Positions 3,239-29,939 of a DNA stretch of 32,000 nt are shown here, in pieces. The stretch lies in contig JADGQF010000006.1 in the NCBI GenBank assembly GCA_017882045.1, forward strand, positions 13,887 through 45,886. Reading direction: 5' to 3'. This DNA comes from Anaerolineales bacterium. Its GTDB lineage: Bacteria; Chloroflexota; Anaerolineae; CG2-30-64-16. Under the pieces are notes generated by a model. That model saw only the letters and a list, made by a program, of their open reading frames with translations, searched no databases and was not told the origin of the DNA. Made by a program: the position numbers and the translations under genes. Within the stretch, counting starts at the first letter, position 1. Every line of letters starts with the position of its first letter.

Positions 3239-3886
3239 TTAGCGGCGGGTCACGCGATGCGCGAGCCAATCGCCCAGCCCGGACAGATCCTCGGTGGGCA
3301 AGTAGTGCCCGGCATGCGCGTCAAAGAGGATGCGCGCCCGGGCCGGGAACTCTTCGTCCCCTTCCCAGAGCAGGACGGCCAGCTCCAGGCGGGGGAGGGC
3401 CTGGAAACGGAAACTGGCATCGGCCAGGTCAAGGGGTTGGCCGCCCAGGGCGGCCGCAGCCGCGCGGAACGCAGCCAGGTCCTGGCCATAACGCTGGGCG
3501 AGCACTGCCTCTTCATGGCCGGCGAACGCCTGAGCATAGAAAAGACCGTCCGGCAGCTCACGGAAGGTCACCCAGCGGTCGGCGGCGGGTGTGCCATCGG
3601 CAGTCAGCAAGTAATGAATGAGCGCGATCGCCACCGATGGATGGGCTGGTTTAGCGGCCGCCAACGCAGCGCTCATATCGGCGGGCGTGTCCGGGCCGAG
3701 AAAGAGCACATCACCCGCCGGGTGGGTGACCAGGTGCCAGGCGCGGAAAAAAGGCAAGACGATGCCCTGCGGGCTGAGCACGCAACCGGACAGCCCGGCG
3801 GACAGCCCAGGGTCGGCGGCCGCCCAGTCAGCGCGGGCACGTTCAAGAGCGATCTGGAAGCGACGGTGTGGATCGGGTTGGGTCAT
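3239..3886 (-). CDS. Hypothetical protein (tentatively DUF3786-like; family assignment unverified)
   Basis: 215-aa ORF with protein-like composition, ATG at 3886 and no obvious SD. The N-terminal pattern (ALERARADWAAADPGLSAGLSGCVL...IVLPFF...HLVTHPAGDV) resembles, from memory only, a family often found beside corrinoid/acetyl-CoA pathway genes. Confidence 0.6.
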   Translation of the reverse strand: MTQPDPHRRFQIALERARADWAAADPGLSAGLSGCVLSPQGIVLPFFRAWHLVTHPAGDVLFLGPDTPADMSAALAAAKPAHPSVAIALIHYLLTADGTPAADRWVTFRELPDGLFYAQAFAGHEEAVLAQRYGQDLAAFRAAAAALGGQPLDLADASFRFQALPRLELAVLLWEGDEEFPARARILFDAHAGHYLPTEDLSGLGDWLAHRVTRR

Positions 3887-5221: not shown

Positions 5222-5641
5222 TCAGGTGTCGCTGTTTTCGTCACTTACCAGGGCGCGCGCCAGGTCGCAGGTCGTGATGATGCCCACCAGCGCGTGCTCT
5301 TCGATCACGGGCGCGTTCTGGATGTTAGTGTTAGCAAAGAATTGGGCGATGAACGGCAATCGCAAGTTAGGGTTGACCACGATTAGCGGCTTGACCATGA
5401 TGTCGCCGACACGTACGCGCATGGGCTCCAGTGACTTGGTCATAACCCGGTAGGCAACTTCCTGGTACGTAAGAATGCCGTAAGCATCGCTCTCGTCCGC
5501 GCGGTCCACAATGACCACCTGGCAGCCGTGCCCAATCATCTTCTGCACGGCCTCATAGACTGTCGACAGCGGCGAAACCATGACGATGTCGGGATTCATG
5601 ATCTCACGCGCTCGCAGTGAATAGATGCGATGGCTTTCCAC
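5222..5641 (-). CDS. CBS-pair domain protein
   Basis: 139 aa, two CBS motifs (AREIMNPDIVMVSPLSTVYEAVQKM...VVIVD and VGDIMVKPLIVVNP...NAPVIEEHALVGIITTCDLARAL). GTG start at 5641 with GGAG 8 nt upstream. Confidence 0.85.
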   Translation of the reverse strand: MESHRIYSLRAREIMNPDIVMVSPLSTVYEAVQKMIGHGCQVVIVDRADESDAYGILTYQEVAYRVMTKSLEPMRVRVGDIMVKPLIVVNPNLRLPFIAQFFANTNIQNAPVIEEHALVGIITTCDLARALVSDENSDT

Positions 5642-5718
5642 AGATCACGCTCCGGGTCACATCGGCAAAACCTGGCGGATAGACCTAGCTGGGCCACAAC
5701 CTCGGCCTACGCCTTATT

Positions 5719-6021
5719 CTACCATAAATCGGGATGCCAGCGGCAAACCTGGGCATGGGTGATCACCCGGAAGCCAAGTTTCCCGAGGATCGGACGACTC
5801 AGGTCGCCGGCATCCACCGTCAGCAAACGAAAGTCACGCCGGATGACTTCATCTACATCCGCTTCGCCCAGGTTGGACCAGATGATGCAGCCGTCCCCTT
5901 TTTGCCCAGGCGCCGGCGCCTGGCGCACGACTCCGGTCTCAATCTCGCGGACCAATCCGAAATACTCGACTTCACGCCGTTGCTGCCAATCGAACAGCTC
6001 GAGGAGTTCCTCGACATTCAT
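5719..6021 (-). CDS. Small hypothetical protein (100 aa), possibly a truncated gene remnant
   Basis: ATG at 6021. The sequence pattern (..GVVRQAPAPG..GCIIWSNLGEADVDEVIRR..DLSRPILGKLGF) resembles, from memory, the N-terminal part of longer acetyltransferase-associated proteins. Only 77 nt remain before the next gene. Confidence 0.4.
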   Translation of the reverse strand: MNVEELLELFDWQQRREVEYFGLVREIETGVVRQAPAPGQKGDGCIIWSNLGEADVDEVIRRDFRLLTVDAGDLSRPILGKLGFRVITHAQVCRWHPDLW

Positions 6022-6117
6022 GCCTCAGCAACCCTTCTCGAAAGATGCCGCAGATGCCGCCCTCTTGCCGATGGACAGCAGTACGCAGGACACCGGCCTA
6101 CCTCCAGACAGCACGAA

Positions 6118-6146
6118 ACCCGAAGGGCGCCGGTCACCCTTCGGGT
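6118..6146 (-). terminator. Putative intrinsic terminator after the LysM gene
   Basis: ACCCGAAGGG (6118-6127) pairs with CCCTTCGGGT (6137-6146) across a 9-nt loop. On the - strand it is followed by TTCGTGCTGTCT, a partial U-tract. Confidence 0.45.
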
Positions 6147-6194
6147 CCGCAAACCTTAGGCCAGACGAATCAAGGTAATGAGCGAGGATGCCTA

Positions 6195-7091
6195 TCAGAC
6201 ACCCTTGCCGCCGAGCAGGTTCTCCAGCGGCGTGCCGTTGATGAACACCTGCACCTTCTGCACCGACGAGAACTGGTGGCCGAGCGCGTCGAACTGCGCG
6301 GCAACACGCGGATCATCGCACTCGCCGCCCAGGCTAAGCTTCCCGGTCAGCTTGATGATCGCCAAACCGTTGTTGATCGTCACGCTCTGCACGGCCAGGT
6401 AGGCATTGTAGAGCGGGTCATAGAGGCCCGATTGGCCGTAGAACCGGTCATGGATTGAGAGCAACTGCTGGACGGCTGCGGTCAGCGGCGCGATCGTCGC
6501 CGATACATTACGGGTCACCATCACCACTGTGTCGCCACAGCCCACGGGACCGTTGGTACTCATAGCGATCAGAGGGACCTGCACTCTGGTGAAGCTCGGC
6601 GGCCCGGGTGGCGTAGGCGGCTCCGGCGTGACGGGCAGCTTGATGACCTGTCCCGGGTAAATACGGTTAGGGTTCCCGATGAGCGGGTTGGCCTTCATCA
6701 GCGCCGCGACGGTCGTGTGGAACCGGTACGCAATCGTTCCCAGCGTATCGCCGCGCTTGACTACGTACGTGGCCGGTCCGGGAGCCGGAGGCGGCGGCGG
6801 CGTGCCGCCCGGGATGTTAAGCCTCTGGCCGGCGAATATGCGGTTCGGGTTGGTGATGCCCGGGTTGGAGTCCAACAGCGCCAGGATGGTAATGCCGCAG
6901 CGCATCGCGATTGTGTTCAGCGAATCGCCCCATTTAACCGTGTAAACGGGACCACAGTCCGTGGGCGCCATAGAAGCAGGCGCTAGAGAAGCGGGAACCG
7001 GGCCAGCGGGCGTTGAGGACGCGATTGCCGGGGCGGCGCCCAGTGTCAGGAGCATGATGCCGACGACGAGCAAGATACGTAGTTGCTTCAC
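6195..7091 (-). CDS. Secreted LysM-LysM-GerMN-like peptidoglycan-binding protein
   Basis: Signal peptide MKQLRILLVVGIMLLTLGAAPAIASS. Two LysM repeats (YTVKWGDSLNTIAMRCG...GQRLNIP and YVVKRGDTLGTIAYRFH...GQVIKLP) separated by Pro-rich linkers. C-terminal ~130 aa are GerMN-like. GTG start with AGGAGG 9 nt upstream. Confidence 0.85.
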   Translation of the reverse strand: MKQLRILLVVGIMLLTLGAAPAIASSTPAGPVPASLAPASMAPTDCGPVYTVKWGDSLNTIAMRCGITILALLDSNPGITNPNRIFAGQRLNIPGGTPPPPPAPGPATYVVKRGDTLGTIAYRFHTTVAALMKANPLIGNPNRIYPGQVIKLPVTPEPPTPPGPPSFTRVQVPLIAMSTNGPVGCGDTVVMVTRNVSATIAPLTAAVQQLLSIHDRFYGQSGLYDPLYNAYLAVQSVTINNGLAIIKLTGKLSLGGECDDPRVAAQFDALGHQFSSVQKVQVFINGTPLENLLGGKGV

Positions 7092-13096: not shown

Positions 13097-13188
13097 AGTA
13101 TACTTTATATCGGTGGGTCCGTGCCAACGTTGTCCAGACGTGGTTGACCAGACCGATTTTGCCAGACCTATTTGCCTAGCAAGGTCTG
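13097..13188 (-). promoter_or_regulatory. cooC-acsE spacer: three direct CCAGAC repeats at exact 14-bp spacing plus a sigma70-like promoter candidate
   Basis: CCAGAC at 13134, 13148 and 13162 (+ strand; GTCTGG on the coding strand). An inverted copy AGGTCTG (13182-13188) pairs with CAGACCT (13163-13169) across the cooC stop. Downstream on the - strand: TTGGCA (13127->13122), 19 nt, TATACT (13102->13097). Confidence 0.35.
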
Positions 13189-13917
13189 CGCGATCGCTTC
13201 TACGGCACGGCTGACAGGCGCGTCGGCGGGCAAGTCGACCAGCGGGCGGCCTTCGCCGTCGAACTCGACCAGCTGAGCATCGTAAGGCACGATGGCCAGC
13301 AGTGGGACACCCATCGCGTCGATGCGGGCTCTGAAGCTATCGGACAGCTGGCCCAGCACGCGGTTGACAATCAGGTAGCGCTGCCTGACGTTGATATCCA
13401 GCTCTTTGCTGAGAGCGACCATCGCCTCGGCAGCAGCCAACCCGCGCTGGCTGGCATCGGTGACCAGCAACAGATGGTCAACGTCGCGCGTGGTGCGCCG
13501 GCTCAAGTGCTCCATGCCGGCCTCGTTATCCATCACAATATAGTCGTAGCCCGCGCCGATGCCGTCGACTACCGAACGCAGCATATGATTGGCCGCGCAA
13601 TAACAGCCCTGTCCCTCGGGGCGCCCCATCGCCAACAGGTCGCAATCGTCGCCCTCCTCGACGGCCATACGCACCGCATAGCTCAGCCAATCCTGGCGCG
13701 ACATCCCGGCAGTCACACCTTCGCGCGCTTCCTCGCGTATGTCGCCTACAGTCTGGTTCAAAGGCAGGCCCAACACCAGGTGCAGGTTGCTGCTCGGATC
13801 CGCGTCGATCGCGAGGACCTTGCCCGCCTCGCGCTGGACCAGGTAACGCACCAGCAGCCCGGAAAGCGTTGTCTTGCCGGTTCCGCCCTTTCCGGCTACG
13901 GCGATAGTAACAGTCAT
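13168..13917 (-). CDS. cooC: CODH/ACS nickel-insertion ATPase CooC/AcsF
   Basis: 249 aa. Deviant Walker A AVAGKGGTGKTT and the Ni-binding C-x-C motif (GQGCYCAANH). TAAGGAG upstream of ATG 13917. Confidence 0.9.
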   Translation of the reverse strand: MTVTIAVAGKGGTGKTTLSGLLVRYLVQREAGKVLAIDADPSSNLHLVLGLPLNQTVGDIREEAREGVTAGMSRQDWLSYAVRMAVEEGDDCDLLAMGRPEGQGCYCAANHMLRSVVDGIGAGYDYIVMDNEAGMEHLSRRTTRDVDHLLLVTDASQRGLAAAEAMVALSKELDINVRQRYLIVNRVLGQLSDSFRARIDAMGVPLLAIVPYDAQLVEFDGEGRPLVDLPADAPVSRAVEAIAQTLLGK

Positions 13918-16546: not shown

Positions 16547-17998
16547 TCACCAGGCCGAATCGCCCTGCAAGAAGTGATCGATATCGGCCGCGGCGCGTTT
16601 GCCGGCCCCCATGGCGCTGATCACAGTGGCTGCGCCGGTCACGACGTCACCGCCGGCCCAGACCTTCGGCATAGTAGTACGGCCTGAATCCTGGTCCGCC
16701 ACCACGGTCCCGTGGCGCGTCCGCTGCAGGCCCTCTGCGTCCACGAATACCAGCGGGTTCGGGCTCGTACCCAGGGCCATGATGACGGTATCTACGTCCA
16801 TGTCGAATTCCGAGCCGGGGATCGGTACCGGCGAGCGGCGGCCCGACGCGTCAGGCTCGCCTAGTTGCTGGCGGATACAACGCATGCCGCGCACATTACC
16901 GCGCTCGTCGCCGAAGATCTCGATCGGGTTGGTCAGGAAGTCAAAGATGATCCCTTCCTCTTCGGCATGATGCACTTCTTCCAGGCGGGCCGGCACCTCA
17001 TCGCGCGAGCGGCGGTACACGACGTGCACCTCACCCGGCTGCTGGCCGTTAAGCCGGGCATGCTGAGTCTGCAGGCGCAGGCTGCAGCGCGCGGCGTCCA
17101 TGGCTACGTTGCCCGCGCCGACCACAGCCACCTTCCGCCCTATCTTGACCGGGGTATCGTACTGAGGGAACTGATAGCCCTTCATCAGGTTAACCCGGGT
17201 CAGAAACTCATTGGCCGACAGAACGCCGTTAAAGTTGATACCGGGGATACGCATAAAGGAAGGCAGGCCCGCCCCGGTCCCCATAAACACGGCATCGTAT
17301 TCCTGTAGCAACTCGCCAATCGTCAGGGTGCGCCCGATCACGTAGTCGGTGCGGATGTCAATTTCCAGGCAGCCCGCAGCAAACTCAATCTCGGCGTTGA
17401 TGACGGCCTTGGGCAAGCGGAACTCGGGAATGCCGTACACCAGGACGCCACCCGGGTTCTGCAGGGATTCGAAGATGGTCACACTGTGACCCAGGCGAGC
17501 CAGGTCCACTGCACAGGTCAGGCCAGACGGGCCAGAACCTACCACGGCCACTTTCTTGCCGGTGCTGGCTCCCCGGGTAGGAGGACAGCTGCGCGAGCGC
17601 AGCTCAAAATCGCCGACGAAGCGCTCCAGGCGTCCAATGGCCACCGGTTGATTCTTGAGGCCGACCAGGCAGCGTGACTCGCACTGCACTTCCTGAGGGC
17701 AAACGCGCCCGCAGATAGCAGGCAGGTTGTTCTTGGCCTTCATCGCTTGCACAGCCGCGACCATATCGCCATCGCGCAGGGCTTTGATAAACTCGGGAAT
17801 CTGCACTCCCACCGGACAGCCGTCGACACATTGCGGACGAGCGCACTGTAAGCAGCGCTCCGCCTCCATGCGGGCCAATTCCAGCGTGAACCCCAAGGCA
17901 ACTTCATCAAAATTGCCCGCGCGCACGTCGGCTTCCTGAACCGGCATGTCCTGACGGGCGATCTTCATGCGTTCTTTAGCAGCAAGCGGAGCCATCAA
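16547..17998 (-). CDS. nfnB: NfnB-type (GltD/SudA-like) NADPH:ferredoxin oxidoreductase large subunit
   Basis: 483 aa. Fe-S motifs CLQCARPQCVDGCP and CGRVCPQEVQCESRC. Two dinucleotide folds, VAVVGSGPSGLTCA and VAVVGAGNVAMDAA. TTG 17998 or ATG 17995; the latter overlaps the nfnA stop (TGATG). Confidence 0.85.
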   Translation of the reverse strand: MMAPLAAKERMKIARQDMPVQEADVRAGNFDEVALGFTLELARMEAERCLQCARPQCVDGCPVGVQIPEFIKALRDGDMVAAVQAMKAKNNLPAICGRVCPQEVQCESRCLVGLKNQPVAIGRLERFVGDFELRSRSCPPTRGASTGKKVAVVGSGPSGLTCAVDLARLGHSVTIFESLQNPGGVLVYGIPEFRLPKAVINAEIEFAAGCLEIDIRTDYVIGRTLTIGELLQEYDAVFMGTGAGLPSFMRIPGINFNGVLSANEFLTRVNLMKGYQFPQYDTPVKIGRKVAVVGAGNVAMDAARCSLRLQTQHARLNGQQPGEVHVVYRRSRDEVPARLEEVHHAEEEGIIFDFLTNPIEIFGDERGNVRGMRCIRQQLGEPDASGRRSPVPIPGSEFDMDVDTVIMALGTSPNPLVFVDAEGLQRTRHGTVVADQDSGRTTMPKVWAGGDVVTGAATVISAMGAGKRAAADIDHFLQGDSAW

Positions 17999-18858
17999 GC
18001 CACCTCCCCGCCAGGGACCTGTTCGAGATTGCAGACGTGCTGCCAGTGCTCGACGGCCTGCCTTTCTTCGTCTCGGTAGAAGGCCAGGCGAGACATAAGG
18101 CTGTTCCAGTCCACCTTGTGGCCGTCAAACTCCGGACCGTCCACGCACACGAATTGCGCACCGTCTTGCAGCACCACGCGGCAGCCGCCACACATGCCGG
18201 TGCCGTCGATCATGACCGTGTTGAGGCTGACGATGGTCGGCACATTGTACGGCCTGGTGGTCTGAGCCACGAACTTCATCATGATCGCCGGCCCGATGGC
18301 CCAGATGCGATTGATGCGCCCCGGGCGCGCTTCCAGCAACTCCTTTAGCGGTTCGGTCACTAACGCCTTACGCCCGTACGAGCCGTCGTCAGTGCAAACC
18401 ACCAACTCATCCGAAACCGAGCGCATGCGCTCTTCCCAGAAGAGCAGGCTGCGGTTGCGTGCGCCGATGATGGAAATAACGGTGTTGCCGGCTTCCTTAA
18501 GGGCCCGCGCGATGGGGAAGACGGGGGCAATGCCGACCCCGCCGCCGACACATATCACCGTGCCATAGTTTTCGATCTCGGTCGGGTGGCCCAACGGCCC
18601 GGCGATGGTCGCGAACGAATCGCTCGCCTTGAGCTTGCCCATCTGCATAGTGGACTTCCCCACTTCTTGCACCACCAGCGTGATCGTTCCCGCCTCGCGA
18701 TTGTAATCGGCGATCGTCAACGGGATGCGCTCCCCATGATCGTCGTTGCGCACGATCACGAACTGACCGGCCCTCGCCTTGCGCGCGACTTGAGGAGCCT
18801 CAGCCACGAACAGCTTGACGGCCTCACTCAAATCCTGTTTCTCAAGAATCCTGTACAT
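17995..18858 (-). CDS. nfnA: NfnA-type (PyrK/SudB-like) FAD/[2Fe-2S] small subunit
   Basis: FNR-like barrel (GQFVIVRNDDHGERIPLTIAD), nucleotide fold VICVGGGVGIAPVFP, and C-terminal cluster motif GTGMCGGCRV...FVCVDGPEF. ATG 18858 preferred (AGGAAG 8 nt upstream); GTG 18867 is the alternative. Confidence 0.85.
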   Translation of the reverse strand: MYRILEKQDLSEAVKLFVAEAPQVARKARAGQFVIVRNDDHGERIPLTIADYNREAGTITLVVQEVGKSTMQMGKLKASDSFATIAGPLGHPTEIENYGTVICVGGGVGIAPVFPIARALKEAGNTVISIIGARNRSLLFWEERMRSVSDELVVCTDDGSYGRKALVTEPLKELLEARPGRINRIWAIGPAIMMKFVAQTTRPYNVPTIVSLNTVMIDGTGMCGGCRVVLQDGAQFVCVDGPEFDGHKVDWNSLMSRLAFYRDEERQAVEHWQHVCNLEQVPGGEVA

Positions 18859-18967
18859 GATACGCACTTCCTACCTTTATGCGCCTCGTACTCGTTGGCG
18901 CTGAGCACGAAGCTTTCTGCTCAGAACCCTATCATCCTAGATTATGTCTCTTTGGCCTCCAGATGCC

Positions 18968-21438: not shown

Positions 21439-22257
21439 CTACCAGTAGCGTTCTACGTGTATCTGTCCTGGTTCCTTGCGTGTGTGCTCGCGATAGCCCT
21501 CGGCGCAGAGCATTTCCTCGGTCTGGTCGATCATTGCCGGGCTGCCGCATAGAAAAATGTGCGTGTCGGTCGGACTGGGCTCAAAGCCCCAGGCTTCCGC
21601 GATCACTCCCCGCCGCCACAGATCCTGCACGTGGCCGCCGAACCCCGTCCATCGCACGGGCTCGTCGCTGGGACGGCTGATGATCGGCACATAGGCGAAG
21701 TTACTGCAGAGGTGCATCAGGTTTTCCAGCTCTGCACGATAGCCCAGTTCCCAGGAATGGCGCGCGCCGTGTAACACGGCAATGTGCCGCTGCTGCGGGC
21801 CACAGGTCAGGTGCGTGGTGAGCATGCTCATATAGGGCGCCAGGCCGGTGCCGGTGGCGATCATGACTATGTTCGCTTCGTCCGGAACCTGGTCCATCGT
21901 GAACATACCGGCGATTTTCGGACCAAGCCACAGATGGTCACCCATACCCAGGGCAAACAGCCGCGGCGTGAGCGAGCCCGAGCCAACCAGATTGAGATAA
22001 AAGTCCATATACTCGCGAGCCAGGGACGAAGATGCGATCGAATATGCCCGCCGGATAAGCTTATCCGCCTCCGGCGCATCCTCCTCCGGATCAGACAACG
22101 GGTGACGCGGGGCCGAACCGGGCAGACCGAGGACTGCGAACTGACCGGGCCGGAACTCGGGCAGCGCCCAGCCGTCCGGACTGACCCGCAAGATGATCAA
22201 CCAGGGCGTGATTTCGATCCGTTGGGTAACGACGGCATTGAGATCGAGTTCAAGCAA
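21439..22257 (-). CDS. Bacterial Fpr-type ferredoxin/flavodoxin-NADP+ reductase
   Basis: 272 aa. FAD motif RAYSIASS, NADP fold MIATGTGLAPYMSM, FLCGSPAMI, and a C-terminal aromatic end VERYW. TTG start at 22257 with AAGGAG 7 nt upstream. Confidence 0.85.
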   Translation of the reverse strand: MLELDLNAVVTQRIEITPWLIILRVSPDGWALPEFRPGQFAVLGLPGSAPRHPLSDPEEDAPEADKLIRRAYSIASSSLAREYMDFYLNLVGSGSLTPRLFALGMGDHLWLGPKIAGMFTMDQVPDEANIVMIATGTGLAPYMSMLTTHLTCGPQQRHIAVLHGARHSWELGYRAELENLMHLCSNFAYVPIISRPSDEPVRWTGFGGHVQDLWRRGVIAEAWGFEPSPTDTHIFLCGSPAMIDQTEEMLCAEGYREHTRKEPGQIHVERYW

Positions 22258-22368
22258 AGTAATACTCCTTAAGACGCGACGAATAATAAGTCATTACTCC
22301 TCACTTGCTACTCGTTACGTCTTGCATATTACTTTTTGATTCATGATTAATCCGTCGTTAACCTCCGG
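22258..22368 (-). promoter_or_regulatory. AT-rich island between the CBS gene and the FNR gene (possible internal promoter or structured 5' region)
   Basis: Conspicuously AT-rich compared with its flanks. On the - strand: TAATAT, a duplicated SD-like GAGGAGTAAT / AAGGAGTATT, and an imperfect long-range pairing AAGACGtaACGA...TCGTcgCGTCTT that ends directly at the FNR SD. Confidence 0.3.
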
Positions 22369-22881
22369 CTAACCCTTCTTTAAACCGTAGCGTTGCCGGA
22401 ACAGATCCATCGGCGTGGGCCGCGGCGCGCCGGTACCCTGGTTCCGTATGTATTCAGGGCCCGCCAGGGCCCGTACCGCATCGCGCAGTTCCAGGACCGC
22501 CGAGGGCCAGGCCATCCCGGCCGCCCGGTGCAGATAGAAGAGATGATCAACTCGCGCGTCCGCCATGATTTGCACCGCCGCGGTCAAAGGGATATCGGCC
22601 GGAGACTCCGGAATATCTTCATCCATTATATCCGCAGCGGTCAAGTCGGGCGAGAATGGACCATCCTCTGCGGCTCCCGCAGCTTTGCCGGCGCGCGCAA
22701 AAGCGGCGGCCAGGTGGCGCTCGCCAATCCAGCCCCGGCTGTCCCCCTCTTCATCTATTACTATGAGTGCCGTGCAATTCTGTTCCAACATCTGCACGGC
22801 CACTGCCTGAACAGGAATGTCCTGCTTGCACGTCGGTACGCCGATGCGCATCACGTCGCGAACCAAGAGTGTTTCGGCCAT
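22369..22881 (-). CDS. Stand-alone CBS-pair protein embedded in the acs operon
   Basis: VRDVMRIGVPTCKQDIPVQAVAVQMLEQNCTALIVIDEEG and TAADIMDEDIPESPADIPLTAAVQIMADARVDHLFYL form two CBS motifs. ATG 22881 (GGGAGA upstream) is preferred over the ORF-track start at 22926, whose extra residues are encoded by the palindrome. Confidence 0.8.
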   Translation of the reverse strand: MAETLLVRDVMRIGVPTCKQDIPVQAVAVQMLEQNCTALIVIDEEGDSRGWIGERHLAAAFARAGKAAGAAEDGPFSPDLTAADIMDEDIPESPADIPLTAAVQIMADARVDHLFYLHRAAGMAWPSAVLELRDAVRALAGPEYIRNQGTGAPRPTPMDLFRQRYGLKKG

Positions 22882-22895
22882 GAATCTCCCCTGGT

Positions 22896-22921
22896 GGCCG
22901 GCGCCCGGCCGGGCGCCGGCC
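22896..22921 (-). other. Perfect 26-nt GC palindrome (hairpin) between acsB and the CBS gene
   Basis: GGCCGGCGCCCGGCCGGGCGCCGGCC equals its own reverse complement. It starts 14 nt after the acsB TGA and ends 14 nt before the CBS ATG. No U-tract. Confidence 0.6.
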
Positions 22922-22935
22922 ATCAAGTTTTTTCA

Positions 22936-25218
22936 TCAGAAGATCGGATCCATCATCAGCGCCGGGTGGCCGCTTCCCTCGAGGAAGGCCACCAACTCCA
23001 TCGGATCGGTGCAGACCGTCTCGTCGGCGATCTTGCTGATCAGATCGGGGTCGCCCTCGCGCTCGGCCACGGTCTGGAGCTCGGCAGCCATCGTCTGCTT
23101 GAGGATGCTCGACATCCAGACCACGCGTTTGAAGCCGCCGTCACCCGAGATGAATTTGGGGCTGGTCAGATAGTATTTGCCCACGCCCATCACGCCCTCG
23201 GTCTGCAGACCGCCGCCGGCCATGCCGGCCAGGGTGCTGAAGGTCATGCCGGCGGGCGTCATGCTCGGGTCCTCGCGGCTGACCACCATCACGCCGTTGG
23301 CCTCGGGCACCAGCATGACGATGCACTCGAAGCAGCCGCAGGCCGTCATCGGTTTGGTCATGATCGAATACATGGCCACTTCTTGCACCGAGCCCTGCGA
23401 GTTCTTGACTGCGATCTCATTGAGACCGGTGTAGAAGCCCTTGACGGGATCGAGAACAGCTCCCTTGCGTACAGGCTGGTTGGGCCCGGTCGGGTTGATC
23501 TCGTAGCTCGCCTTGCAGTCCAACCAGTTATAGGCGCCGCACAGCCCCAGGCGCTGCGGGCTGACCAGGCAGACATGGGTAGGCGCGAAGCTCTGGCACA
23601 AGGTACAGGTGTAGAACTCTTCCACCGTCTCGTCCGTCAGGTTGGCCAGGCGCCGGTTGCGGAAGTCGTACGCCGCGCGGGCCTTCTCCAACCACTCCGC
23701 CACCAGGGCCGGGTCGGTGAAGATCGTGACCTGCACCTTGTCCACAATCGCGCCAAAGTCGGCGTGCAAGCGGGCGTGGACGATATCGCCGAAGTGGCGC
23801 AGATTGAAACCCTTGCCGTAGGCGGCCTGGCTGATGCGGATCCAGGCGATGTCGCGCTGGCCGATGTGCTGGATACCACTGGCGCCGTTCACGAAGTAGT
23901 GGATCTGACGCTCGAGCACCGGCTCGAAGTCGGTCTGCATCTTGCGGCCGGCAACCTTAATCACGATGCCCAGGTCCATGGCGCCACCAACGGCCATGCT
24001 CTCGATCGGCGGGCCGATGACCTCGATCTTGCCGTCCTCGACCTTATCCATGTCCACCATGCGCAGGTATTCGAAAGCCCGGCTGTACTTGCCGCCGAAC
24101 TCGACGCGCATGTCCTTCTTCCGCACCACTTCGCCCTCAAAGGCCGAGCCGTAGGGCACGGGGATGGGCACTTCCGTCATCTTGATCTTGACGCCGCGCA
24201 CCTCGATCGCCCGCTGAACCAGCTTGGCCGCCTTCTCCTCTTCCGTGGCGGCCCCGATCTCGTTCCAGGGCATGGAGATGACATGCTCGTAGCGGGTGAC
24301 ACCGCTGGGCAGAATTTGCGGGATGACGGTATCGGCAATCGTTGGAAAACCGTAGGAGATAGCGCCCGCGGCAGCCGCGTACTTCAGGTCGTCCACCTCG
24401 CCGAGGGCGAGGACGAAGGCGAAAACGCGAAACTTGTTGTAAAGCAGGATATCCCGCCACTGCCCGCCCTTCATGCCGCCGAAGGTGAGGGCGGAACGAG
24501 TGGCGAAACCAAGGGCGTAGATGGCGGAGATCGTATCCCGGCCGAAGGGCACGATGAAGGTATCGTAGCCCATTTCGACCCCTTCCTCGCGCAACTGGTC
24601 GATGATAGAGCGACCATTAACATTGCCGGAGAGGAAAGTCAGGATGTTGCGGCGTTGAAGCTCGCGCACGATCGCGACGGCGGCCGCGTTTGTACGCGCC
24701 GCGCCGACGATGGCGGCGAAGCCGGGCATGCGTCCGTCAACCAACTGGATACCCCAGGAGCGAAGCTGGATGTCGTCGATCGGCCCGTTCAGGTGACCGC
24801 CGCCGTTTTCGCTCTCGAACTCCGGGCTGGTGAAAGAAGTTCCACCGGCGAGATGGAAACCCGGGTACGGTTCAGGCTGCTGCCCCAGCGTGAAACGGAC
24901 GCCTTCGATGGTCTCCGCCGCCAGCAGCGTCGCCATGCCGCTGTCCAGCGTTTCGCCAAGGTAAGGCACCCACAGGTTGTCGTCGGGCGCCGGGTGCAAA
25001 AGCTTATGGGCGTGCTCCATAACCGGGCGAAGATCGCCCAGCGTCTTCACCTCGTGGCCTAGCATTCCGAAGGCCACCGGCAGATAGTAGGCGGTGTTGG
25101 GGAAGGCCACCGGTGTGCCGGCGCCCCGCTCGGCGATTGTCTTCGCGAGCATAACCTCGGCTTCAGCCACCAGGGCATTCGCCCCGCGGGCGGCGCGTGT
25201 AGCAATATAACGAGACAT
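22936..25218 (-). CDS. acsB: Acetyl-CoA synthase (A-cluster subunit) AcsB
   Basis: 760 aa. A-cluster ligands C-x2-C-x8-C-x9-C (FYTCTLCQSFAPTHVCLVSPQRLGLCGA) and the Ni-binding Cys-Gly-Cys (MTACGCFECIVM). AGGGAGG upstream of ATG 25218. Confidence 0.96.
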   Translation of the reverse strand: MSRYIATRAARGANALVAEAEVMLAKTIAERGAGTPVAFPNTAYYLPVAFGMLGHEVKTLGDLRPVMEHAHKLLHPAPDDNLWVPYLGETLDSGMATLLAAETIEGVRFTLGQQPEPYPGFHLAGGTSFTSPEFESENGGGHLNGPIDDIQLRSWGIQLVDGRMPGFAAIVGAARTNAAAVAIVRELQRRNILTFLSGNVNGRSIIDQLREEGVEMGYDTFIVPFGRDTISAIYALGFATRSALTFGGMKGGQWRDILLYNKFRVFAFVLALGEVDDLKYAAAAGAISYGFPTIADTVIPQILPSGVTRYEHVISMPWNEIGAATEEEKAAKLVQRAIEVRGVKIKMTEVPIPVPYGSAFEGEVVRKKDMRVEFGGKYSRAFEYLRMVDMDKVEDGKIEVIGPPIESMAVGGAMDLGIVIKVAGRKMQTDFEPVLERQIHYFVNGASGIQHIGQRDIAWIRISQAAYGKGFNLRHFGDIVHARLHADFGAIVDKVQVTIFTDPALVAEWLEKARAAYDFRNRRLANLTDETVEEFYTCTLCQSFAPTHVCLVSPQRLGLCGAYNWLDCKASYEINPTGPNQPVRKGAVLDPVKGFYTGLNEIAVKNSQGSVQEVAMYSIMTKPMTACGCFECIVMLVPEANGVMVVSREDPSMTPAGMTFSTLAGMAGGGLQTEGVMGVGKYYLTSPKFISGDGGFKRVVWMSSILKQTMAAELQTVAEREGDPDLISKIADETVCTDPMELVAFLEGSGHPALMMDPIF

Positions 25219-25233
25219 GTGGCTATACCTCCC

Positions 25234-27240
25234 TTATCTGGCCGGGGCCCCGTAGACCGCTTCGATGCGTTCTTCGAGGGGAAGCGCAATCAGTTCCGGC
25301 ATGCGTGCGTCACCGCTCTTGCCCCACTTGCTCGCGTCATATTTCGGCAGATTCAGGGCAGCCCGCTTCTTGTCGATGTGCTGCATGGCGCGGCGCACGA
25401 TCTCCGCGCCCTCGGCGATAAACTCCAGCTTGCCGCCGACCTTCTTCTCCCAGGTCTCGCTCATCAGGCGCAGGATATTCTCGCTGCCCGACACCGGGCC
25501 ATCGGTCCCACCCATAATGACGTAGCAACCTGAGGCAACCGCATAAACCGCGATCGCCAGTGCCTTCTCGCTCATCCATTCAGGCGCGATACCGACCGCG
25601 GGAATGTCGCTGATATCGTTCCCCAGGCCGCCCTCGCTGGCCATCTGGGTCAAGACGGTCAGGATGCGGGAATTATCGACACAGGACCCCATATGCAGCA
25701 CAGGCGGCATGCCGATCGCTTCGCAGACCTCGCGCAGTCCCGGTCCCGCCACTTCCAGCGCAGCCTGGGGCGTCATATAACCCTGCTTGGCACTTGCAAT
25801 GGCGCCGCACCCGGTCTCGACCACCAGCACATCATTCTTGAGGAACTCAGTCACCACGTAGCGGTGAAGCGAGTCATGGGATACGCGCGGGTTGTTGCAG
25901 CCGATGTTGGCCACCACGCCGCGGATTCGGCCTTGCATGATGGCATCGTTCAGCGGGCGGAAGGAAGCCCGGTAGACACCACCCAGGGCATAGTCGATGT
26001 ACTCATGCGAAAAGCCGGGGACGACTGGGCTCTTGATATCGGGAATGAAGGTTTCGCCGCGCATGGCGAAGCGATCGATGGCCACGCGCACGATCTGCTT
26101 GGCCGTCGCCAGCGCGTGGTGCTCGTCGAACTCAATGCGCATCGAGCCGGGGATCGCGGCCTTCGGCGAGGTGCTGATGAGCGCCGTGTGGAAGCGGGCG
26201 GCGACGGGATTGAGGCCTTCCATGATGCACTGCACGTCGACGACCATCGCGTCGACTGCGCCGGTGATCAAGGCCAGTTCCTGCTGCAAGAAATTGCCCG
26301 CCAGCTTGACACCCTGGCGGAGCAATGCCTCGTTCGCGGTGCAACACAGGCCGGCCAGGTTGATGCCTTTGGCGCCTTTGCTCTGGGCATAAGCGATCAA
26401 TTCGGGATCTTGCACCGCGGCGACGATCATCTCCGACAGGGTTGGCTCATGGCCGTGTACGACCAGGTTGACCATGTCCGCTTCCAGCACGCCCAGGTTG
26501 GCTTCCGCCAGCACCGGCGCGGGAGTGCCGAAAAGCACGTCGGTGAGATCGGTGCCGAGCATCGAACCACCCCAACCATCGGCCAGCGCGCAGCGCATGG
26601 CCTGATCGAGGATGTGCTCCGGGTCTTGATCGTTGCCGATGTTGGTGCGATGCATGGTCTCGACCACTTCCCGGTCGATGTTGCGCGGGGCGATGTGATT
26701 CTCTTTCCAGATTTGCTGGCGCTTGGCGGGGGCGCGCTTGAGGTAGGTCAACTCGCCCTGTGGCTTGCCGAACTCGCCCAACGCGGCCAGCGCCACATCC
26801 TTGGCGATCTCGACGGTCGTGCGCCCGTCAGTCTTGATGCCGAGGTAGCCGGCGACCTCTTTGAGCTTGTGGGGATCACGGACGCGAAAATCCGGGGCAT
26901 CGCCTTCAGCAGCCGCAAGCAGAGTGTAGGCCAGGCCGCGCGCGTGGTCGGAGTGGGCTGCGCTACCCGAGGCAACAGATCGGGTAAAGTTGCGGGCAAC
27001 AATGGTATCCGCGGTAGCGCCACAAACGCCGCGCAGTGTATTGCCTACCAGGCGGCAAGGACCGGCGGCGCAGTTCTTGCAGCACAAGCCCTGGGCGCCG
27101 ATATTGCAGGGGATTATGTTGTCCGCTCTGCGGAAGGCGGTGTCGATATCCAGGAAGATCGCGCGATCCAGCATCTGGACTGCAGCCGGGTCCTCGCTGC
27201 TCTCTTGGGCGGTGCGCACTTTCTTTGCCATTTGTGTCAC
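25234..27240 (-). CDS. acsA: Ni-Fe-S carbon monoxide dehydrogenase catalytic subunit AcsA/CooS
   Basis: 668 aa. B/D-cluster region CNIGAQGLCCKNCAAGPCRL and C-cluster motifs VVHGHEP, ETGCGAIA, HMGSCVDNSR. GTG 27240 (3 nt after AGGAG) or ATG 27231. Confidence 0.96.
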   Translation of the reverse strand: MTQMAKKVRTAQESSEDPAAVQMLDRAIFLDIDTAFRRADNIIPCNIGAQGLCCKNCAAGPCRLVGNTLRGVCGATADTIVARNFTRSVASGSAAHSDHARGLAYTLLAAAEGDAPDFRVRDPHKLKEVAGYLGIKTDGRTTVEIAKDVALAALGEFGKPQGELTYLKRAPAKRQQIWKENHIAPRNIDREVVETMHRTNIGNDQDPEHILDQAMRCALADGWGGSMLGTDLTDVLFGTPAPVLAEANLGVLEADMVNLVVHGHEPTLSEMIVAAVQDPELIAYAQSKGAKGINLAGLCCTANEALLRQGVKLAGNFLQQELALITGAVDAMVVDVQCIMEGLNPVAARFHTALISTSPKAAIPGSMRIEFDEHHALATAKQIVRVAIDRFAMRGETFIPDIKSPVVPGFSHEYIDYALGGVYRASFRPLNDAIMQGRIRGVVANIGCNNPRVSHDSLHRYVVTEFLKNDVLVVETGCGAIASAKQGYMTPQAALEVAGPGLREVCEAIGMPPVLHMGSCVDNSRILTVLTQMASEGGLGNDISDIPAVGIAPEWMSEKALAIAVYAVASGCYVIMGGTDGPVSGSENILRLMSETWEKKVGGKLEFIAEGAEIVRRAMQHIDKKRAALNLPKYDASKWGKSGDARMPELIALPLEERIEAVYGAPAR

Positions 27241-27246
27241 TCTCTC

Positions 27247-27582
27247 CTAGTAGCGTCGGAACTCGCCCGACATTTCCACGTCGGCCCGATTGGTCCTGGT
27301 TACCCGTGCACCCAACAGTTCCCACTTGGGATCGCGCATGTGTTCGCCGGGTGCAGTCATCACGGGAATCTGCCCATCCTCGACCGGGTAACCCGCCTGG
27401 TCCAGCGCGAGTTCAAGTGCTGCGCTATTGGTCTTGGCAGGGTCAAATACCACCAGGGCTTGCTTCCAGGCCGAACTGGCGTACACGCTTCCCACGCCAT
27501 CCAGGTGGACCAGCACATCACGCACGTTGAGGACGTGATGATCCGCCCACATACTGGGGATACTCAGTTGCAGCTTTTCCAT
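27247..27582 (-). CDS. Small HMA-fold-like (ferredoxin-like beta-alpha-beta-beta-alpha-beta) protein lacking the CxxC metal site; first gene of the acs string
   Basis: 111 aa from ATG 27582, with the strongest local SD (GGAGGAG, 8-nt spacer). KLQLSIPSMWADHHVLNVRDVLVHLDGVGSVYASSAWKQALVVFDPAKTNSAALELALDQAGYPV matches the heavy-metal-associated pattern LxVxGMxCxxCxxxVxxxLxxxxGVxxxxVxxxxxxxxVxxDxxxxxxxxLxxAIxxAGY. MxCxxC is replaced by MWADHH. The frame stays open upstream to 28026. Confidence 0.65.
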   Translation of the reverse strand: MEKLQLSIPSMWADHHVLNVRDVLVHLDGVGSVYASSAWKQALVVFDPAKTNSAALELALDQAGYPVEDGQIPVMTAPGEHMRDPKWELLGARVTRTNRADVEMSGEFRRY

Positions 27583-28023
27583 TGCTGGCGCTCCTCCCTC
27601 AATCTTGGTATGCGCTTCCGCGCGTCCGTTTCGTGTCAAACTGGCAATCTCGCGCCGGTGCTCGATGTAAAGGATGCAGAAATCGCAGGTGATGTGGACC
27701 GGCGCGCAACAAGTGGGACAGCCGTTGCGCTGCTCCCAACAAGAGGAATCGCTGGCATATACCGGGCAGTCGGCACATTGCGTGCGCCACCCGTCCGCAC
27801 GGCCATTTTTCTCGCCCGACGCGCCCGTTGCAGACACCGCCTGGTTGGCGCGACCGGCCGGGCCAGGGTTCTGGCCGCCGGTCGGACCATCCGGGTATCC
27901 CGCCCTGATCTGCCAGCAAGTTCTCACTGTACGGATCCTTCGCGACCCTGGGTCACGGGTTCTCGACCTGCCATTAAGGTCACGCCGCCTCGGTGCCCGG
28001 CATCGGGGTGCGCTCGAAGGCGG
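27583..28023 (-). promoter_or_regulatory. ~440-nt leader between the terminator and the first strong SD of the acs genes (structured RNA and/or unannotated Cys-rich coding extension)
   Basis: Contains a 14-bp stem with a 2-nt bulge (CGACCGGCGGCCAG-aacc-CTGGCC-cg-GCCGGTCG, 27884->27851) and several smaller hairpins. The same region is in frame with the HMA-like ORF and encodes C-x2-C-x8-C-x6-C-x2-C-C-x6-C-x2-C (27777->27676). Confidence 0.4.
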
Positions 28024-28070
28024 CAAACAAAAAAACGCCTGTCCGTCGCGCGAGACTAAACGGACAGGCG
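28024..28070 (-). terminator. Textbook Rho-independent terminator between the ANTAR regulator gene and the acs genes
   Basis: On the - strand: CGCCTGTCCGT (28070->28060), 13-nt loop, ACGGACAGGCG (28046->28036), then TTTTTTTGTTTG (28035->28024). The 11-bp stem is perfect. Confidence 0.85.
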
Positions 28071-28200: not shown

Positions 28201-28779
28201 CTATAGCATCTGGTCGGCCATGATGATCGCCTCGGCCACCTGCGCCAATCGGCGATTGGTGTTTTGGCTCTGGCGCTGCAGGCGCTGAAATGCTTCGTCC
28301 TCGCTCAGATCCAGCCGGCGCATCAGGATACCCTTGGCGCGCTCGATCAACTTGCGTGCCTCCAGCGCTTCGCGCAGGTCGGCGACTTCTCGTCGTAGGG
28401 CCTGGAACTGGCGAAAACGAATCAAGGCCAGGGTGATGGCAGGCAGCAGATCTTCTTCCGAAACCGGCTTCATGAGGTAAGCCGCTATGTTGGCCTGCGC
28501 TGCGCGCTCGACCAACTGCGCCTCGCTATAGGCGGTGAGCAGGATGATGGGGATGGGCCGTGCCTCGGTGATCCGCTGGGCAGCCTCGATACCGTCGGCG
28601 ACCGGCATGCGAATATCGATGATGGCCAGGTCAGGCTGAGTGCTGGCGGCCAGTACCACCGCCTCCTCGCCGTTTGAGGCCTCGGCGACTACGATGTGGC
28701 CCAGCGCGGCCAATTGAGCGCGCAGGCTCAAAAGACGTATGCTCTCATCGTCGGCGATCAAGATGCGCAGGGATTCCAT
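28201..28779 (-). CDS. Response regulator with REC + ANTAR RNA-binding output domain (PdtaR/AmiR-like)
   Basis: 192 aa. REC: ILIADDE, phospho-acceptor region DLAIIDIRMPVADG, YLMKP. ANTAR: LEARKLIERAKGILMRRLDLSEDEAFQRLQRQSQNTNRRLAQVAEAII. ATG lies 5 nt after the kinase stop. Confidence 0.9.
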   Translation of the reverse strand: MESLRILIADDESIRLLSLRAQLAALGHIVVAEASNGEEAVVLAASTQPDLAIIDIRMPVADGIEAAQRITEARPIPIILLTAYSEAQLVERAAQANIAAYLMKPVSEEDLLPAITLALIRFRQFQALRREVADLREALEARKLIERAKGILMRRLDLSEDEAFQRLQRQSQNTNRRLAQVAEAIIMADQML

Positions 28780-28784
28780 GGTAT

Positions 28785-29939
28785 CTACCGATAGAAGGTA
28801 ACTGTAGCACAGCTCCCGGCCGGCAGTCGCTCGAGACGCAACGTGCCGTCCAGGTCTTTCTCGACCAGCGTGCGGACGATCTGCAAACCGAGACCGCTGT
28901 TCTTGGTAAGGTCAAATCCCGGCGGCAAACCATGTCCGCCGTCGACGATGGTCAGCGAGATGCGCGGCCCATCCTGCTGAAGCCCGACCAGGATCAGGCC
29001 GGAGAGCCCGCCGGAGAAGCCGTGCTCCAATGCGTTCGCAATCAGCTCGTTCATGACCAGCGCGAGCGCGGTAGCTTGCTTTGACGGCAGATAGATGGGC
29101 GGCCCGGTCACTTCCGCCTGGACTTCCTGGCCCGGTCGCGTCAGGTGACCCAGCGCGATCTCGCTGACCTGGCGGGCCAGCTCGGTGATGTCGGTCAGCC
29201 GCAATTGCTCGGATGACAGCAACCGGTGCACGGCGGCAATGCTCTTGATGCGGTTGATGCTGTCGTGCAGGCTACGGCGCGCTTCCGGACTGGTGCTGTT
29301 CAGCATTTCAAGGCTGAGAAGATCGGCTACGGTCTGCAGGTTATTCTTGATGCGGTGATGCATCTCCGCGATCACAGCCGATAGAGCCTCGGCTCGACGC
29401 GCCTCCTCACGCAGGCGCATATTTTCCATCGCGAAGCCGATCTGCGCCGCTGCGGATCGCAAGAGCGCTATTTCCGCGGAACTGAGGGTCGTGCCCTGGC
29501 GTGTGACAACATGCAGCACGCCCAACACGCGGTCTTTGGCTAACAGAGGCACCGACGCGCAGCTATGCTGCGTGTAGCGCCGGCAGTCCGGGCGGATGAC
29601 GCGCCGGTCATCGCCAGCATCGACAGCCACCAGGGGTTCGCCGCCGTTCGCGGCCAGGCCGCATAAGCACTCGCCCGGACGGATCGTCGCCTCGTCAGGG
29701 TCCAGGAAGAGAGGATTGCCCGCCGCAGCTACCAGGGCCAATTGCTGCGTCTTGTCGTCAAGCAGATAGATGCGCCCGCTTTCGAGAGCCATCACCTGCA
29801 GGACGCGGCTGAGAGCCTGAGACAGGGCCTGCTCTTCGTCCAACGCCTGGTTCATGGCCGCAGAGACGGCGTACAGGGCCGCCAACTCCTGAGTGCGGCG
29901 CCCTTCCTCCCCCACCTGCGGGTCACCCGCGTCAGGCAA
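28785..29939 (-). CDS. Cytoplasmic GAF-domain sensor histidine kinase (HisKA_2 type, PdtaS-like)
   Basis: 384 aa with no TM segment. GAF region holds 4 Cys (ECLCG, PDCRR, HSCAS). H-box EMHHRIKNNLQTVADLL, N-box LVMNELIANALEHGF, G-boxes DGGHGLP and GLGLQIV. TTG start with GGAGG 4 nt upstream; GTG 29915 is the alternative. Confidence 0.85.
   Translation of the reverse strand: MPDAGDPQVGEEGRRTQELAALYAVSAAMNQALDEEQALSQALSRVLQVMALESGRIYLLDDKTQQLALVAAAGNPLFLDPDEATIRPGECLCGLAANGGEPLVAVDAGDDRRVIRPDCRRYTQHSCASVPLLAKDRVLGVLHVVTRQGTTLSSAEIALLRSAAAQIGFAMENMRLREEARRAEALSAVIAEMHHRIKNNLQTVADLLSLEMLNSTSPEARRSLHDSINRIKSIAAVHRLLSSEQLRLTDITELARQVSEIALGHLTRPGQEVQAEVTGPPIYLPSKQATALALVMNELIANALEHGFSGGLSGLILVGLQQDGPRISLTIVDGGHGLPPGFDLTKNSGLGLQIVRTLVEKDLDGTLRLERLPAGSCATVTFYR

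Follow-up and report, generated by a model that had tools for sequence, protein, structure and literature searches.

DHH-HMA proteins, HMA-fold relatives with an Asp-His-His loop encoded directly ahead of the CODH/ACS genes, are candidate metal-handling or metal-sensing helpers

The HMA metallochaperones, among them CopZ, MerP, Atx1/HAH1 and the N-terminal domains of P1B-ATPases, are small soluble proteins of the heavy-metal-associated (HMA) fold, in which metal is held at a G-M-x-C-x-x-C motif on loop 1 and the start of helix 1 and is passed on by docking. Maturation of the Ni-Fe-S clusters of carbon monoxide dehydrogenase (CODH) is presumed to involve metal handling by a different set of proteins encoded in CODH operons, namely CooT and CooJ, which are also small, and the ATPase CooC/AcsF. 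CooJ carries a His-rich tract, CooT an N-terminal Cys and CooC a P-loop, and the gene clusters of model acetogens encode two CooC/AcsF-type ATPases. What CooT and CooJ do is unclear, and the need for CooC varies (PMC6006190). We analyzed a 32,000-nucleotide stretch of contig JADGQF010000006.1 from an Anaerolineales bacterium (positions 13,887 to 45,886; hereafter the window), which encodes a 111-amino acid (aa) HMA-like protein, HMAl, directly ahead of acsA, the gene for the Ni-CODH subunit of CODH/acetyl-CoA synthase (CODH/ACS). HMAl belongs to a genuine and large family, here called DHH-HMA, which is tightly linked to CODH/ACS and seems to be undescribed, and HMAl is a strong candidate for a protein that helps CODH/ACS by handling or sensing metal. 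An earlier reading of the DNA alone, referred to below as the original prediction, had drawn attention to HMAl; it overlooked an in-frame Cys-rich module upstream of the gene, a larger sister subfamily with a Cys in its tail, and fusions to a helix-turn-helix (HTH) domain, all of which are described here.

The HMAl open reading frame (ORF) runs on the minus strand from an ATG at 27582 to a TAG at 27249-27247, and its translation begins MEKLQLSIPSMWADHHVLNVRDVL, ends SGEFRRY, and contains no Cys and four His. The sole Pfam match at E ≤ 10 was HMA (PF00403), with 17.9 bits, under the gathering cutoff of 24.8. The NCBIfam equivalog models were all missed: MerP by 36.9 against 92.55, the CopZ models by 20 to 21 (21.1 against 91 in one case) against cutoffs of 91 to 95, and CopP by 16.9 against 112. 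Sequence matches in the PDB were to MerP (1osd, E = 1.9e-5) and to domains of ATP7B (E = 4e-6). The resemblance to HMA domains that had been predicted is real, but every profile score falls under the curated threshold. One relative, P0198, passes the Pfam HMA cutoff with 30.3 bits and others have precomputed PF00403 matches; since some relatives pass, HMAl is best placed, on its sequence, as a divergent branch of the HMA superfamily. An AlphaFold2 model built with 80 family members gave a β-α-β-β-α-β fold over residues 1 to 68, with a predicted local distance difference test (pLDDT) score of 93 to 96. The top 50 Foldseek matches of the model in the PDB were all HMA domains, including MerP 1osd (template modeling (TM) score 0.91, root-mean-square deviation (rmsd) 1.3 Å) and CopZ 2qif (TM 0.95, rmsd 0.9 Å), and the HMA fold put forward in the original prediction thus stands. 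An HPr-like phospho-His carrier, with His15 at the start of a helix, was considered and rejected, there being no HPr fold among the Foldseek matches.

The metal loop is where HMAl departs from its structural relatives. In HMMER alignments M11 corresponds to the conserved Met, and A13 and H16, which flank D14 and H15, occupy the positions of the first and second Cys of M-x-C-x-x-C. No G-M-x-C-x-x-C motif is present in HMAl; the loop reads S-M-W-A-D-H-H, as had been noticed from the translation, and the alignments to MerP and ATP7B and those of the family agree that an invariant Asp-His-His replaces CxxC. HMAl thus shares with the HMA metallochaperones the fold (TM about 0.9, rmsd 0.9 to 1.3 Å), the Met of loop 1, the G-Y before strand 4 and the small soluble form, and likely also the principle of carrying metal on loop 1/helix 1 and transferring it by docking. 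It differs from them in the Asp-His-His, in an A-S-S-A-W sequence at the β2-β3 hairpin, in a 43-residue C-terminal tail, in its subthreshold Pfam and NCBIfam scores, and in having acsA rather than a Cu, Hg or Zn transporter as its genomic partner. Because both the CxxC motif and the profile thresholds fail, HMAl would be classed as a divergent HMA variant and not as CopZ. The topology of HMA domains places loop 1, the β2-β3 hairpin and the α2-β4 loop at the same end of the domain, and so P-x-M-W-A-D-H-H, A-S-S-A-W and A-G-Y probably form one conserved surface. To CooT, CooJ and CooC/AcsF, HMAl is unrelated in sequence and fold (it has no Pfam match to these families), and it has neither the His-rich tract of CooJ, the N-terminal Cys of CooT nor the P-loop of CooC; the likeness lies in being encoded in a CODH operon with a presumed role in handling metal.

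Protein representatives of the family are labeled P0067 and so on, and the loci of relatives L001 and so on. An initial search returned 86 cluster representatives, almost all of 108 to 111 aa, and the named ones came from metagenome-assembled genomes (MAGs) of Anaerolineae and Caldilineae. Their automatic names are "copper chaperone CopZ" (JGI) and "heavy-metal-associated domain-containing protein" (NCBI). When GTDB was scanned with one genome for each species, relatives appeared in 406 genomes, and virtually all of the best 80 belong to Chloroflexota (Anaerolineae, Thermoflexales and Caldilineae). A profile was also run exhaustively against 1.84 billion representatives and gave 1,617 matches at E ≤ 1e-3, of which 260 reached E ≤ 1e-10. 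Among the deep-search matches listed, 119 of 148 new representatives have an [A/G/S]-D-H-H loop; classical CxxC proteins account for 17 of the 148 and rank lower. In the 80 aligned sequences P9, D14, H15, H16, G29, A35, S36, G64, D84, W87, R93, T97, G106 and R109 are invariant, and Y-A-S-S-A-W-K (34 to 40) and the C-terminal S-G-E-F-R-R-Y are nearly so. A chance ORF in GC-rich DNA is ruled out by this family conservation and by the ratio of nonsynonymous to synonymous substitution rates (dN/dS), because the DHH motif is invariant over a family of hundreds of sequences. Very long ORFs also run antisense to acsA, acsB and HMAl (for example 788 and 889 aa), among them one on the plus strand at 25693-28059, and these are taken to be stop-poor artifacts of high G+C rather than genes.

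Four types of DHH-HMA protein were distinguished. Subfamily (a), from Anaerolineae, is the type found in the window and ends in SG[DE][FHY]R[KR]Y. Subfamily (b) is far larger, with more than 1,125 cluster representatives of about 128 to 135 aa, and its named members come from MAGs of Actinomycetota, Myxococcales and Anaerolineae. In the tail of subfamily (b) FRH[ST]AA is conserved and GRPLWPCPG, including its Cys, is invariant. Type (c) comprises versions of (a) and (b) with an N-terminal HTH domain, and type (d) has a shortened tail and adjoins or is fused to a Cys-rich module. D14, H15, H16, G29, S36 and G64 are invariant in both (a) and (b), and Y65 is invariant in (b) and nearly so in (a). 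We propose to define the DHH-HMA family by D-H-H at the start of helix 1 together with S36 and G64-Y65, and by a gene position directly 5′ of acsA-acsB; the window protein has both the sequence features and the position. The deep search also returned proteins with tandem HMA-like domains and the loop P-G-M-G-S-D-H-C-A-G (P0180, P0202, P0215 and P0232), and this D-H-C loop looks like an intermediate between D-H-H and CxxC.

The position of the gene is as conserved as the loop. Among the 80 genome loci, acsA lies directly 3′ of HMAl on the same strand in all 78 that could be tested, the remaining two contigs ending just past the gene, and in these 78 loci HMAl-acsA is followed by acsB, acsD, acsC, RACo and cooC. 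For subfamily (b), acsA is the next gene in 74 of 74 metagenome loci whose sequence extends 200 nt or more past HMAl, at a median gap of 13.5 nt, and HMAl then acsA is also the order in four of four gene-called contigs from other lineages. Combined, HMAl is immediately 5′ of acsA-acsB in 152 of 152 testable loci and in five further gene-called contexts, these four contigs among them, so that the linkage of homologs to CODH genes, on which the original prediction had staked its case, was found throughout. No HMAl was detected beside a stand-alone cooS or another Ni enzyme in the loci examined. In the window, HMAl and acsA are in the same frame and are separated by 6 nt, the spacing given at the outset, if acsA starts at GTG 27240, and by 15 nt with ATG 27231 as the start, and the data favor neither. 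HMAl had also been described as the first gene of the operon; although it always directly precedes acsA, other cistrons can come before it: a DUF166 gene ends 6 nt ahead of HMAl on the same strand in L169, and fhs and DUF166 precede it in L168.

That HMAl is an ordinary copper chaperone CopZ lying near acsA by coincidence is effectively refuted by sequence and synteny together. The CopZ fold and the automatic CopZ annotation speak for it. It is contradicted by the absence of CxxC, and of any Cys, in HMAl, by the wide margins at which the CopZ, CopP and MerP equivalog cutoffs are missed, by the absence of copA, copY and mer genes nearby in the window and in the gene-called contexts, and by the adjacency to acsA in every one of the testable loci.

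The C-terminal tail of HMAl (residues 69 to 111) is the second distinguishing feature of the protein. The extra tail of about 40 aa pointed out in the original prediction proved to be a conserved addition with no PDB counterpart: a sequence search of the PDB with the tail returned no match, and the tail of subfamily (b) likewise returned none. Between the window and its nearest relative, L001, dN/dS is 0.135 for the HMA domain, 0.066 for the tail and 0.049 for the core of the upstream Cys-rich module. The tail is therefore under at least as much constraint as the fold. AlphaFold2 predicted only short helices for it, at pLDDT 54 to 65, and because it is constrained yet has low predicted order, the model suggests that the tail folds on, and docks to, a partner protein. 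One possible partner is AcsA itself. Alignment of the window AcsA (668 residues) with all solved CODHs stops at about residues 629 to 639, and the remaining C-terminal extension of about 39 aa (LP.YD...G.SGD.R...LP..ER..A.YG) had no match in the PDB at E ≤ 10. The extension is kept in 104 of 107 HMAl-linked AcsAs, in both subfamilies; as the survey covers HMAl-linked AcsAs only, this count does not establish co-occurrence with HMAl, and the extension is no more than a candidate docking site for HMAl. The G.SGD.R of the extension resembles the S-G-[DE]-x-R of the HMAl tail, possibly by coincidence.

These same features could be accounted for if HMAl were a metal-free structural subunit or assembly adaptor of the CODH/ACS of this clade, with the HMA fold serving as an interaction module and Asp-His-His lying in the interface; such a protein might aid assembly of the AcsA dimer or of AcsB, or dock an electron-transfer partner. 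The absolute synteny and gene order with acsA, a conserved tail that is disordered when alone and the clade-specific AcsA extension would all fit, and the fold matches include HMA interaction modules that have no metal site, namely the HMA domain of plant HIPP proteins bound by fungal effectors (8r7a and 8r7d). We nevertheless regard this alternative as quite unlikely. An invariant Asp-His-His placed exactly at the ancestral metal loop is hard to explain without a ligand, as are the invariant Cys and conserved His in the tail of the sister subfamily, and the fusions to an eight-Cys module and to HTH domains described below point to a ligand-dependent function.

The HMAl frame continues upstream of its ATG, with no stop codon, into a Cys-rich module of the form C-W...C-x-x-C...S-C-W-E...C-C-A-P...T-C-D-F-C..Y..H, which has a candidate GTG start at 27927 with AAGGA just ahead of it. 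Pfam and NCBIfam searches with the module returned no family. Purifying selection on the module shows, at the level of sequence, that the segment is translated, and since no stop codon closes the module, the predicted product is a 226-aa fusion of the module to HMAl, made beside the 111-aa form. A strong ribosome-binding site, GAGGGAGGAG, has its 3′ end 8 nt ahead of the HMAl ATG and sits within the 18-codon linker between the two parts. Between the window and L001 this linker has undergone no synonymous and four nonsynonymous changes, against about six to seven synonymous changes expected (an estimate from the dS of the flanking sequence). Since the linker lacks synonymous changes and holds the Shine-Dalgarno sequence, the comparison indicates constraint at the nucleotide level, and probably that the 111-aa form is also initiated internally. 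The description of HMAl as cysteine-less accordingly holds for the 111-aa ORF and not necessarily for the protein that is made, an eight-Cys segment being encoded in frame and stop-free upstream. In an AlphaFold2 model of the 226-aa read-through product, the Cys-rich part had pLDDT 33 to 65 with a shallow alignment.

The Cys-rich module belongs to a rare family of nine cluster representatives and is found as stand-alone proteins of 82 to 98 aa (P0362 and P0364-6), of which the copy in L167 lies directly ahead of a 107-aa ORF and acsA, and as fusions to HMAl (P0088, P0103, P0105, P0118, P0363, P0367, P0370 and L001). In L006 (5302-6768) and L022 (5814-7223) it reads in frame and without a stop into an alanine dehydrogenase-like gene that has its own Shine-Dalgarno sequence and start, and in both loci the module comes just after a gene pair encoding a GAF-domain histidine kinase and an ANTAR response regulator. 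It looks as if the first gene after this regulator pair, whatever it encodes, carries the module.

The same kinase/ANTAR pair, which we take to be PdtaS/PdtaR-like, lies upstream of HMAl on the same strand in the window and also upstream in L001, L006 and L022. The leader between the ANTAR gene and the Cys-rich ORF folds strongly (z = -4.3) and contains a GC-rich hairpin followed by a U-tract. A simple promoter and terminator scan of the leader found nothing, the hairpin having been missed owing to its long loop; Rfam had no match in the window, and no dual-hexaloop ANTAR target was clearly recognized in the leader. The acs operon may be controlled by ANTAR antitermination.

A more direct connection to transcription is seen in relatives of HMAl. 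Several members of each tail type carry, ahead of the DHH-HMA domain, an N-terminal domain of about 65 residues that matches Pfam HTH_17/MerR and, over 54 residues, PDB entries 6AMA and 6AMK (E = 8e-16), presumably the Streptomyces MerR-like regulator BldC on DNA. BldC consists of the HTH alone and is in this like the N-terminal domain of the fused relatives; the window HMAl has no HTH. The fused proteins belong to three or more tail subfamilies (P0067 and P0096; P0303, P0307, P0317, P0331 and P0332; P0207, P0222 and P0230), keep the full tail, and are encoded directly ahead of acsA in L086, L104, L107, L110, L119, L147 and L154. The function of the DHH-HMA domain thus appears compatible with, and sometimes coupled to, DNA binding, and the HTH-fused proteins are candidate one-component regulators of CODH/ACS operons. 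NikR offers an analogy, with no homology implied: this Ni-responsive repressor combines a DNA-binding domain with a ferredoxin-like metal-binding domain, and in both cases a small β-α-β-β-α-β-type domain with His ligands is joined to a DNA-binding domain near genes of nickel use. NikR, however, has a ribbon-helix-helix and an ACT-like tetramerization domain, whereas the HTH-fused relatives have a BldC-like MerR HTH and an HMA fold.

Because BldC-like HTH fusions occupy the same position as HMAl, a sensor or regulator is a serious rival to a pure chaperone, if on balance an unlikely one. The DHH domain would then sense metal availability, or redox state or CO through a bound metal; HTH-fused forms would autoregulate the acs operon, and stand-alone forms would modulate AcsA or a separate regulator through the tail. 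The spread of the fusions over at least three tail subfamilies directly ahead of acsA and the match of the HTH to 6AMA/6AMK argue for it, as does gene position, the 5′-most place in the target operon being typical of metalloregulators such as ArsR, CadC and CopY. The operon also lies downstream of the kinase/ANTAR pair and the hairpin/U-tract, so that regulation would be layered. Most members, however, have no DNA-binding domain, and no separate HTH gene accompanies HMAl in the gene-called contexts. The short gap to acsA (median 13.5 nt) suggests stoichiometric co-production rather than a low-abundance regulator, and retention of the full tail in the HTH-fused forms suggests that the tail partner is needed even where DNA is bound.

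The reading we prefer is that HMAl is an accessory metal-handling protein dedicated to AcsA, the metal being most plausibly Ni, and from the sequence evidence we give it a probability somewhat under one half (about 0.45). The Asp-His-His face, together with the A-S-S-A-W β2-β3 hairpin and the G-Y loop, would bind a divalent ion, most probably Ni(II). Because two neighboring His at the beginning of a helix seldom bind a single ion within the same chain, the site would probably be completed across an interface, with a second HMAl or with a partner protein. The tail would dock on AcsA, possibly on its C-terminal extension, or on CooC, and the metal would be handed over by ligand exchange in the manner of HMA chaperones, so that the Ni-Fe-S clusters mature or receive the right metal; a role of the same class would be to protect labile Ni sites from Cu or Zn. 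In HTH-fused relatives the metal-dependent domain would make transcription of the operon respond to metal status, and the window organism would produce the 226-aa fusion to the eight-Cys module as well as the 111-aa form, the latter translated from a ribosome-binding site of its own. Besides the fold, the invariant loop, the linkage to acsA, the constrained tail, the shared AcsA extension and the unsettled roles of the known accessory proteins, the preferred reading is favored by the extra potential ligands in the tail of subfamily (b), an invariant Cys and a conserved His (GRPLWPCPG and FRH), by the repeated occurrence of the Cys-rich module adjoining or fused to HMAl, and by the presence in the operon of a lone CooC/AcsF-type ATPase. 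The cooC noted earlier further down the cluster is this CooC-type ATPase, at 13168-13917 with a P-loop and a CYC motif; NCBIfam typing did not separate CooC from AcsF.

Several observations weigh against a metal-handling role for HMAl. The assignment of Ni is a guess from the partner enzyme, and His15 and His16 could hardly both ligate one ion in a monomer. The ligand set is uneven, the Cys and His of the tail being absent from the window's subfamily and present in its sister, and AlphaFold2 gives no structure for the HMAl tail. A sensor accounts for the HTH-fused forms, which take the same place in the operon, more readily than a chaperone does. HMAl is found with acsA-acsB only and never with stand-alone cooS, which also requires Ni, and to our knowledge the characterized CODH/ACS systems (Moorella, Clostridium and Carboxydothermus) work without HMAl.

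Table 1. Coordinates of HMAl, its parts and associated features in the window.
Feature	Position	Strand	Evidence or remark
HMAl ORF (HMA-like), 111 aa + stop	27247..27582	-	ORF and translation; 86 representatives of 108-111 aa; purifying selection vs L001
HMA-fold domain, residues 1-68 (β-α-β-β-α-β)	27379..27582	-	AlphaFold2, Foldseek and subthreshold HMA/MerP HMM (hidden Markov model) matches
Loop 1/helix 1 start P9-S-M-W-A-D14-H15-H16, in place of G-M-x-C-x-x-C	27535..27558	-	Alignment to MerP/ATP7B
Conserved HMAl tail, residues 69-111 (..RDPxWxxLGxRxTxT....SGEFRRY-COOH)	27250..27378	-	Invariant D84, W87, R93, T97, G106, R109
Shine-Dalgarno GAGGGAGGAG for 111-aa HMAl	27591..27600	-	Sequence; sits within read-through linker
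Cys-rich module, in frame with HMAl, no stop	27583..27927	-	Translation; alignment of 8 invariant Cys + His; core dN/dS 0.049
12-bp GC-rich hairpin then U7, between ANTAR gene and Cys-rich ORF	28029..28070	-	Sequence
REC-ANTAR response regulator	28201-28779	-	Pfam; upstream of HMAl, same strand
GAF-HisKA_2 histidine kinase	28785-29939	-	Pfam; upstream of HMAl, same strand
acsA, Ni-CODH subunit of CODH/ACS	25234..27240 (start GTG 27240 or ATG 27231)	-	Pfam Prismane 534 bits; best PDB matches are CODH subunits of CODH/ACS
AcsA C-terminal extension, about 39 aa (LP.YD...G.SGD.R...LP..ER..A.YG)	25237..25353	-	Beyond PDB-aligned part
acsB, acetyl-CoA synthase subunit	22936..25218	-	Pfam CODH_A_N, CdhC, ACS_CODH_B_C
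CooC/AcsF-type P-loop ATPase, only one in operon	13168..13917	-	Pfam CbiA/ParA; GKGGTGKT P-loop and CYC motif

The same-strand genes after HMAl make up a complete Wood-Ljungdahl cluster in the order acsA, acsB, a CBS-domain protein, an FNR-like NAD-binding protein, acsD, acsC, an NfnAB-like pair, RACo, a GNAT acetyltransferase, the CooC-type ATPase, acsE, a malic enzyme-like gene, a thioredoxin reductase-like gene, folD, metV and metF. The cluster includes two sets of additional redox genes. The CBS-domain and FNR-like genes occupy the acsB-acsD interval (21439-22926, minus strand), and a CBS gene follows acsB in several other loci. The NfnAB-like pair, consisting of a DHODB Fe-S subunit and a GltD-like protein, lies between acsC and RACo (16547-18867, minus strand). 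Some Anaerolineae appear to encode AcsB::AcsD fusions with AcsB and CdhD (AcsD) domains, in L168 (8518-12225; 1,235 aa) and L169 (8415-11957; 1,180 aa). At the far end of the window's cluster is a DUF3786 gene (3239-3886, minus strand), and in L083 a divergently oriented DUF3786 gene (5636-6274) adjoins the HMA-like gene; DUF3786 is a further uncharacterized family that travels with acs genes.

The literature searched tied no HMA or CopZ-like protein to ACS or to the Wood-Ljungdahl pathway, although the main evolutionary survey of CODH/ACS clusters may mention one, and studies of CODH genomic context do not mention a DHH-HMA protein. The suggestion that the protein was undescribed is borne out to the extent that no description of the family was found in that literature. 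The database entries that label DHH-HMA proteins "copper chaperone CopZ" represent a systematic misannotation. In this family the HMA fold would have exchanged thiolate for Asp/His ligation.

CODH/ACS holds the central place among Wood-Ljungdahl enzymes and is being targeted for biocatalytic conversion of CO2 and CO, and the assembly of its Ni-Fe-S clusters is poorly understood. Taken together, the observations allow a broader reading, tentative and as a whole doubtful, in which DHH-HMA proteins are CODH/ACS-specific metal factors of several phyla that hold Ni or exclude Cu and Zn, dock through the tail on the AcsA extension, and would be needed for metallation in Chloroflexota, Actinomycetota and other uncultured CO2-fixing anaerobes, with the HTH-fused forms acting as metal-responsive autoregulators and the eight-Cys module as a new metal or Fe-S partner. 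A His-based CopZ-like protein embedded in the operon in hundreds of genomes is a concrete new candidate factor for building these clusters, and it could help to explain why the CODH/ACS of uncultured lineages may resist active heterologous production.

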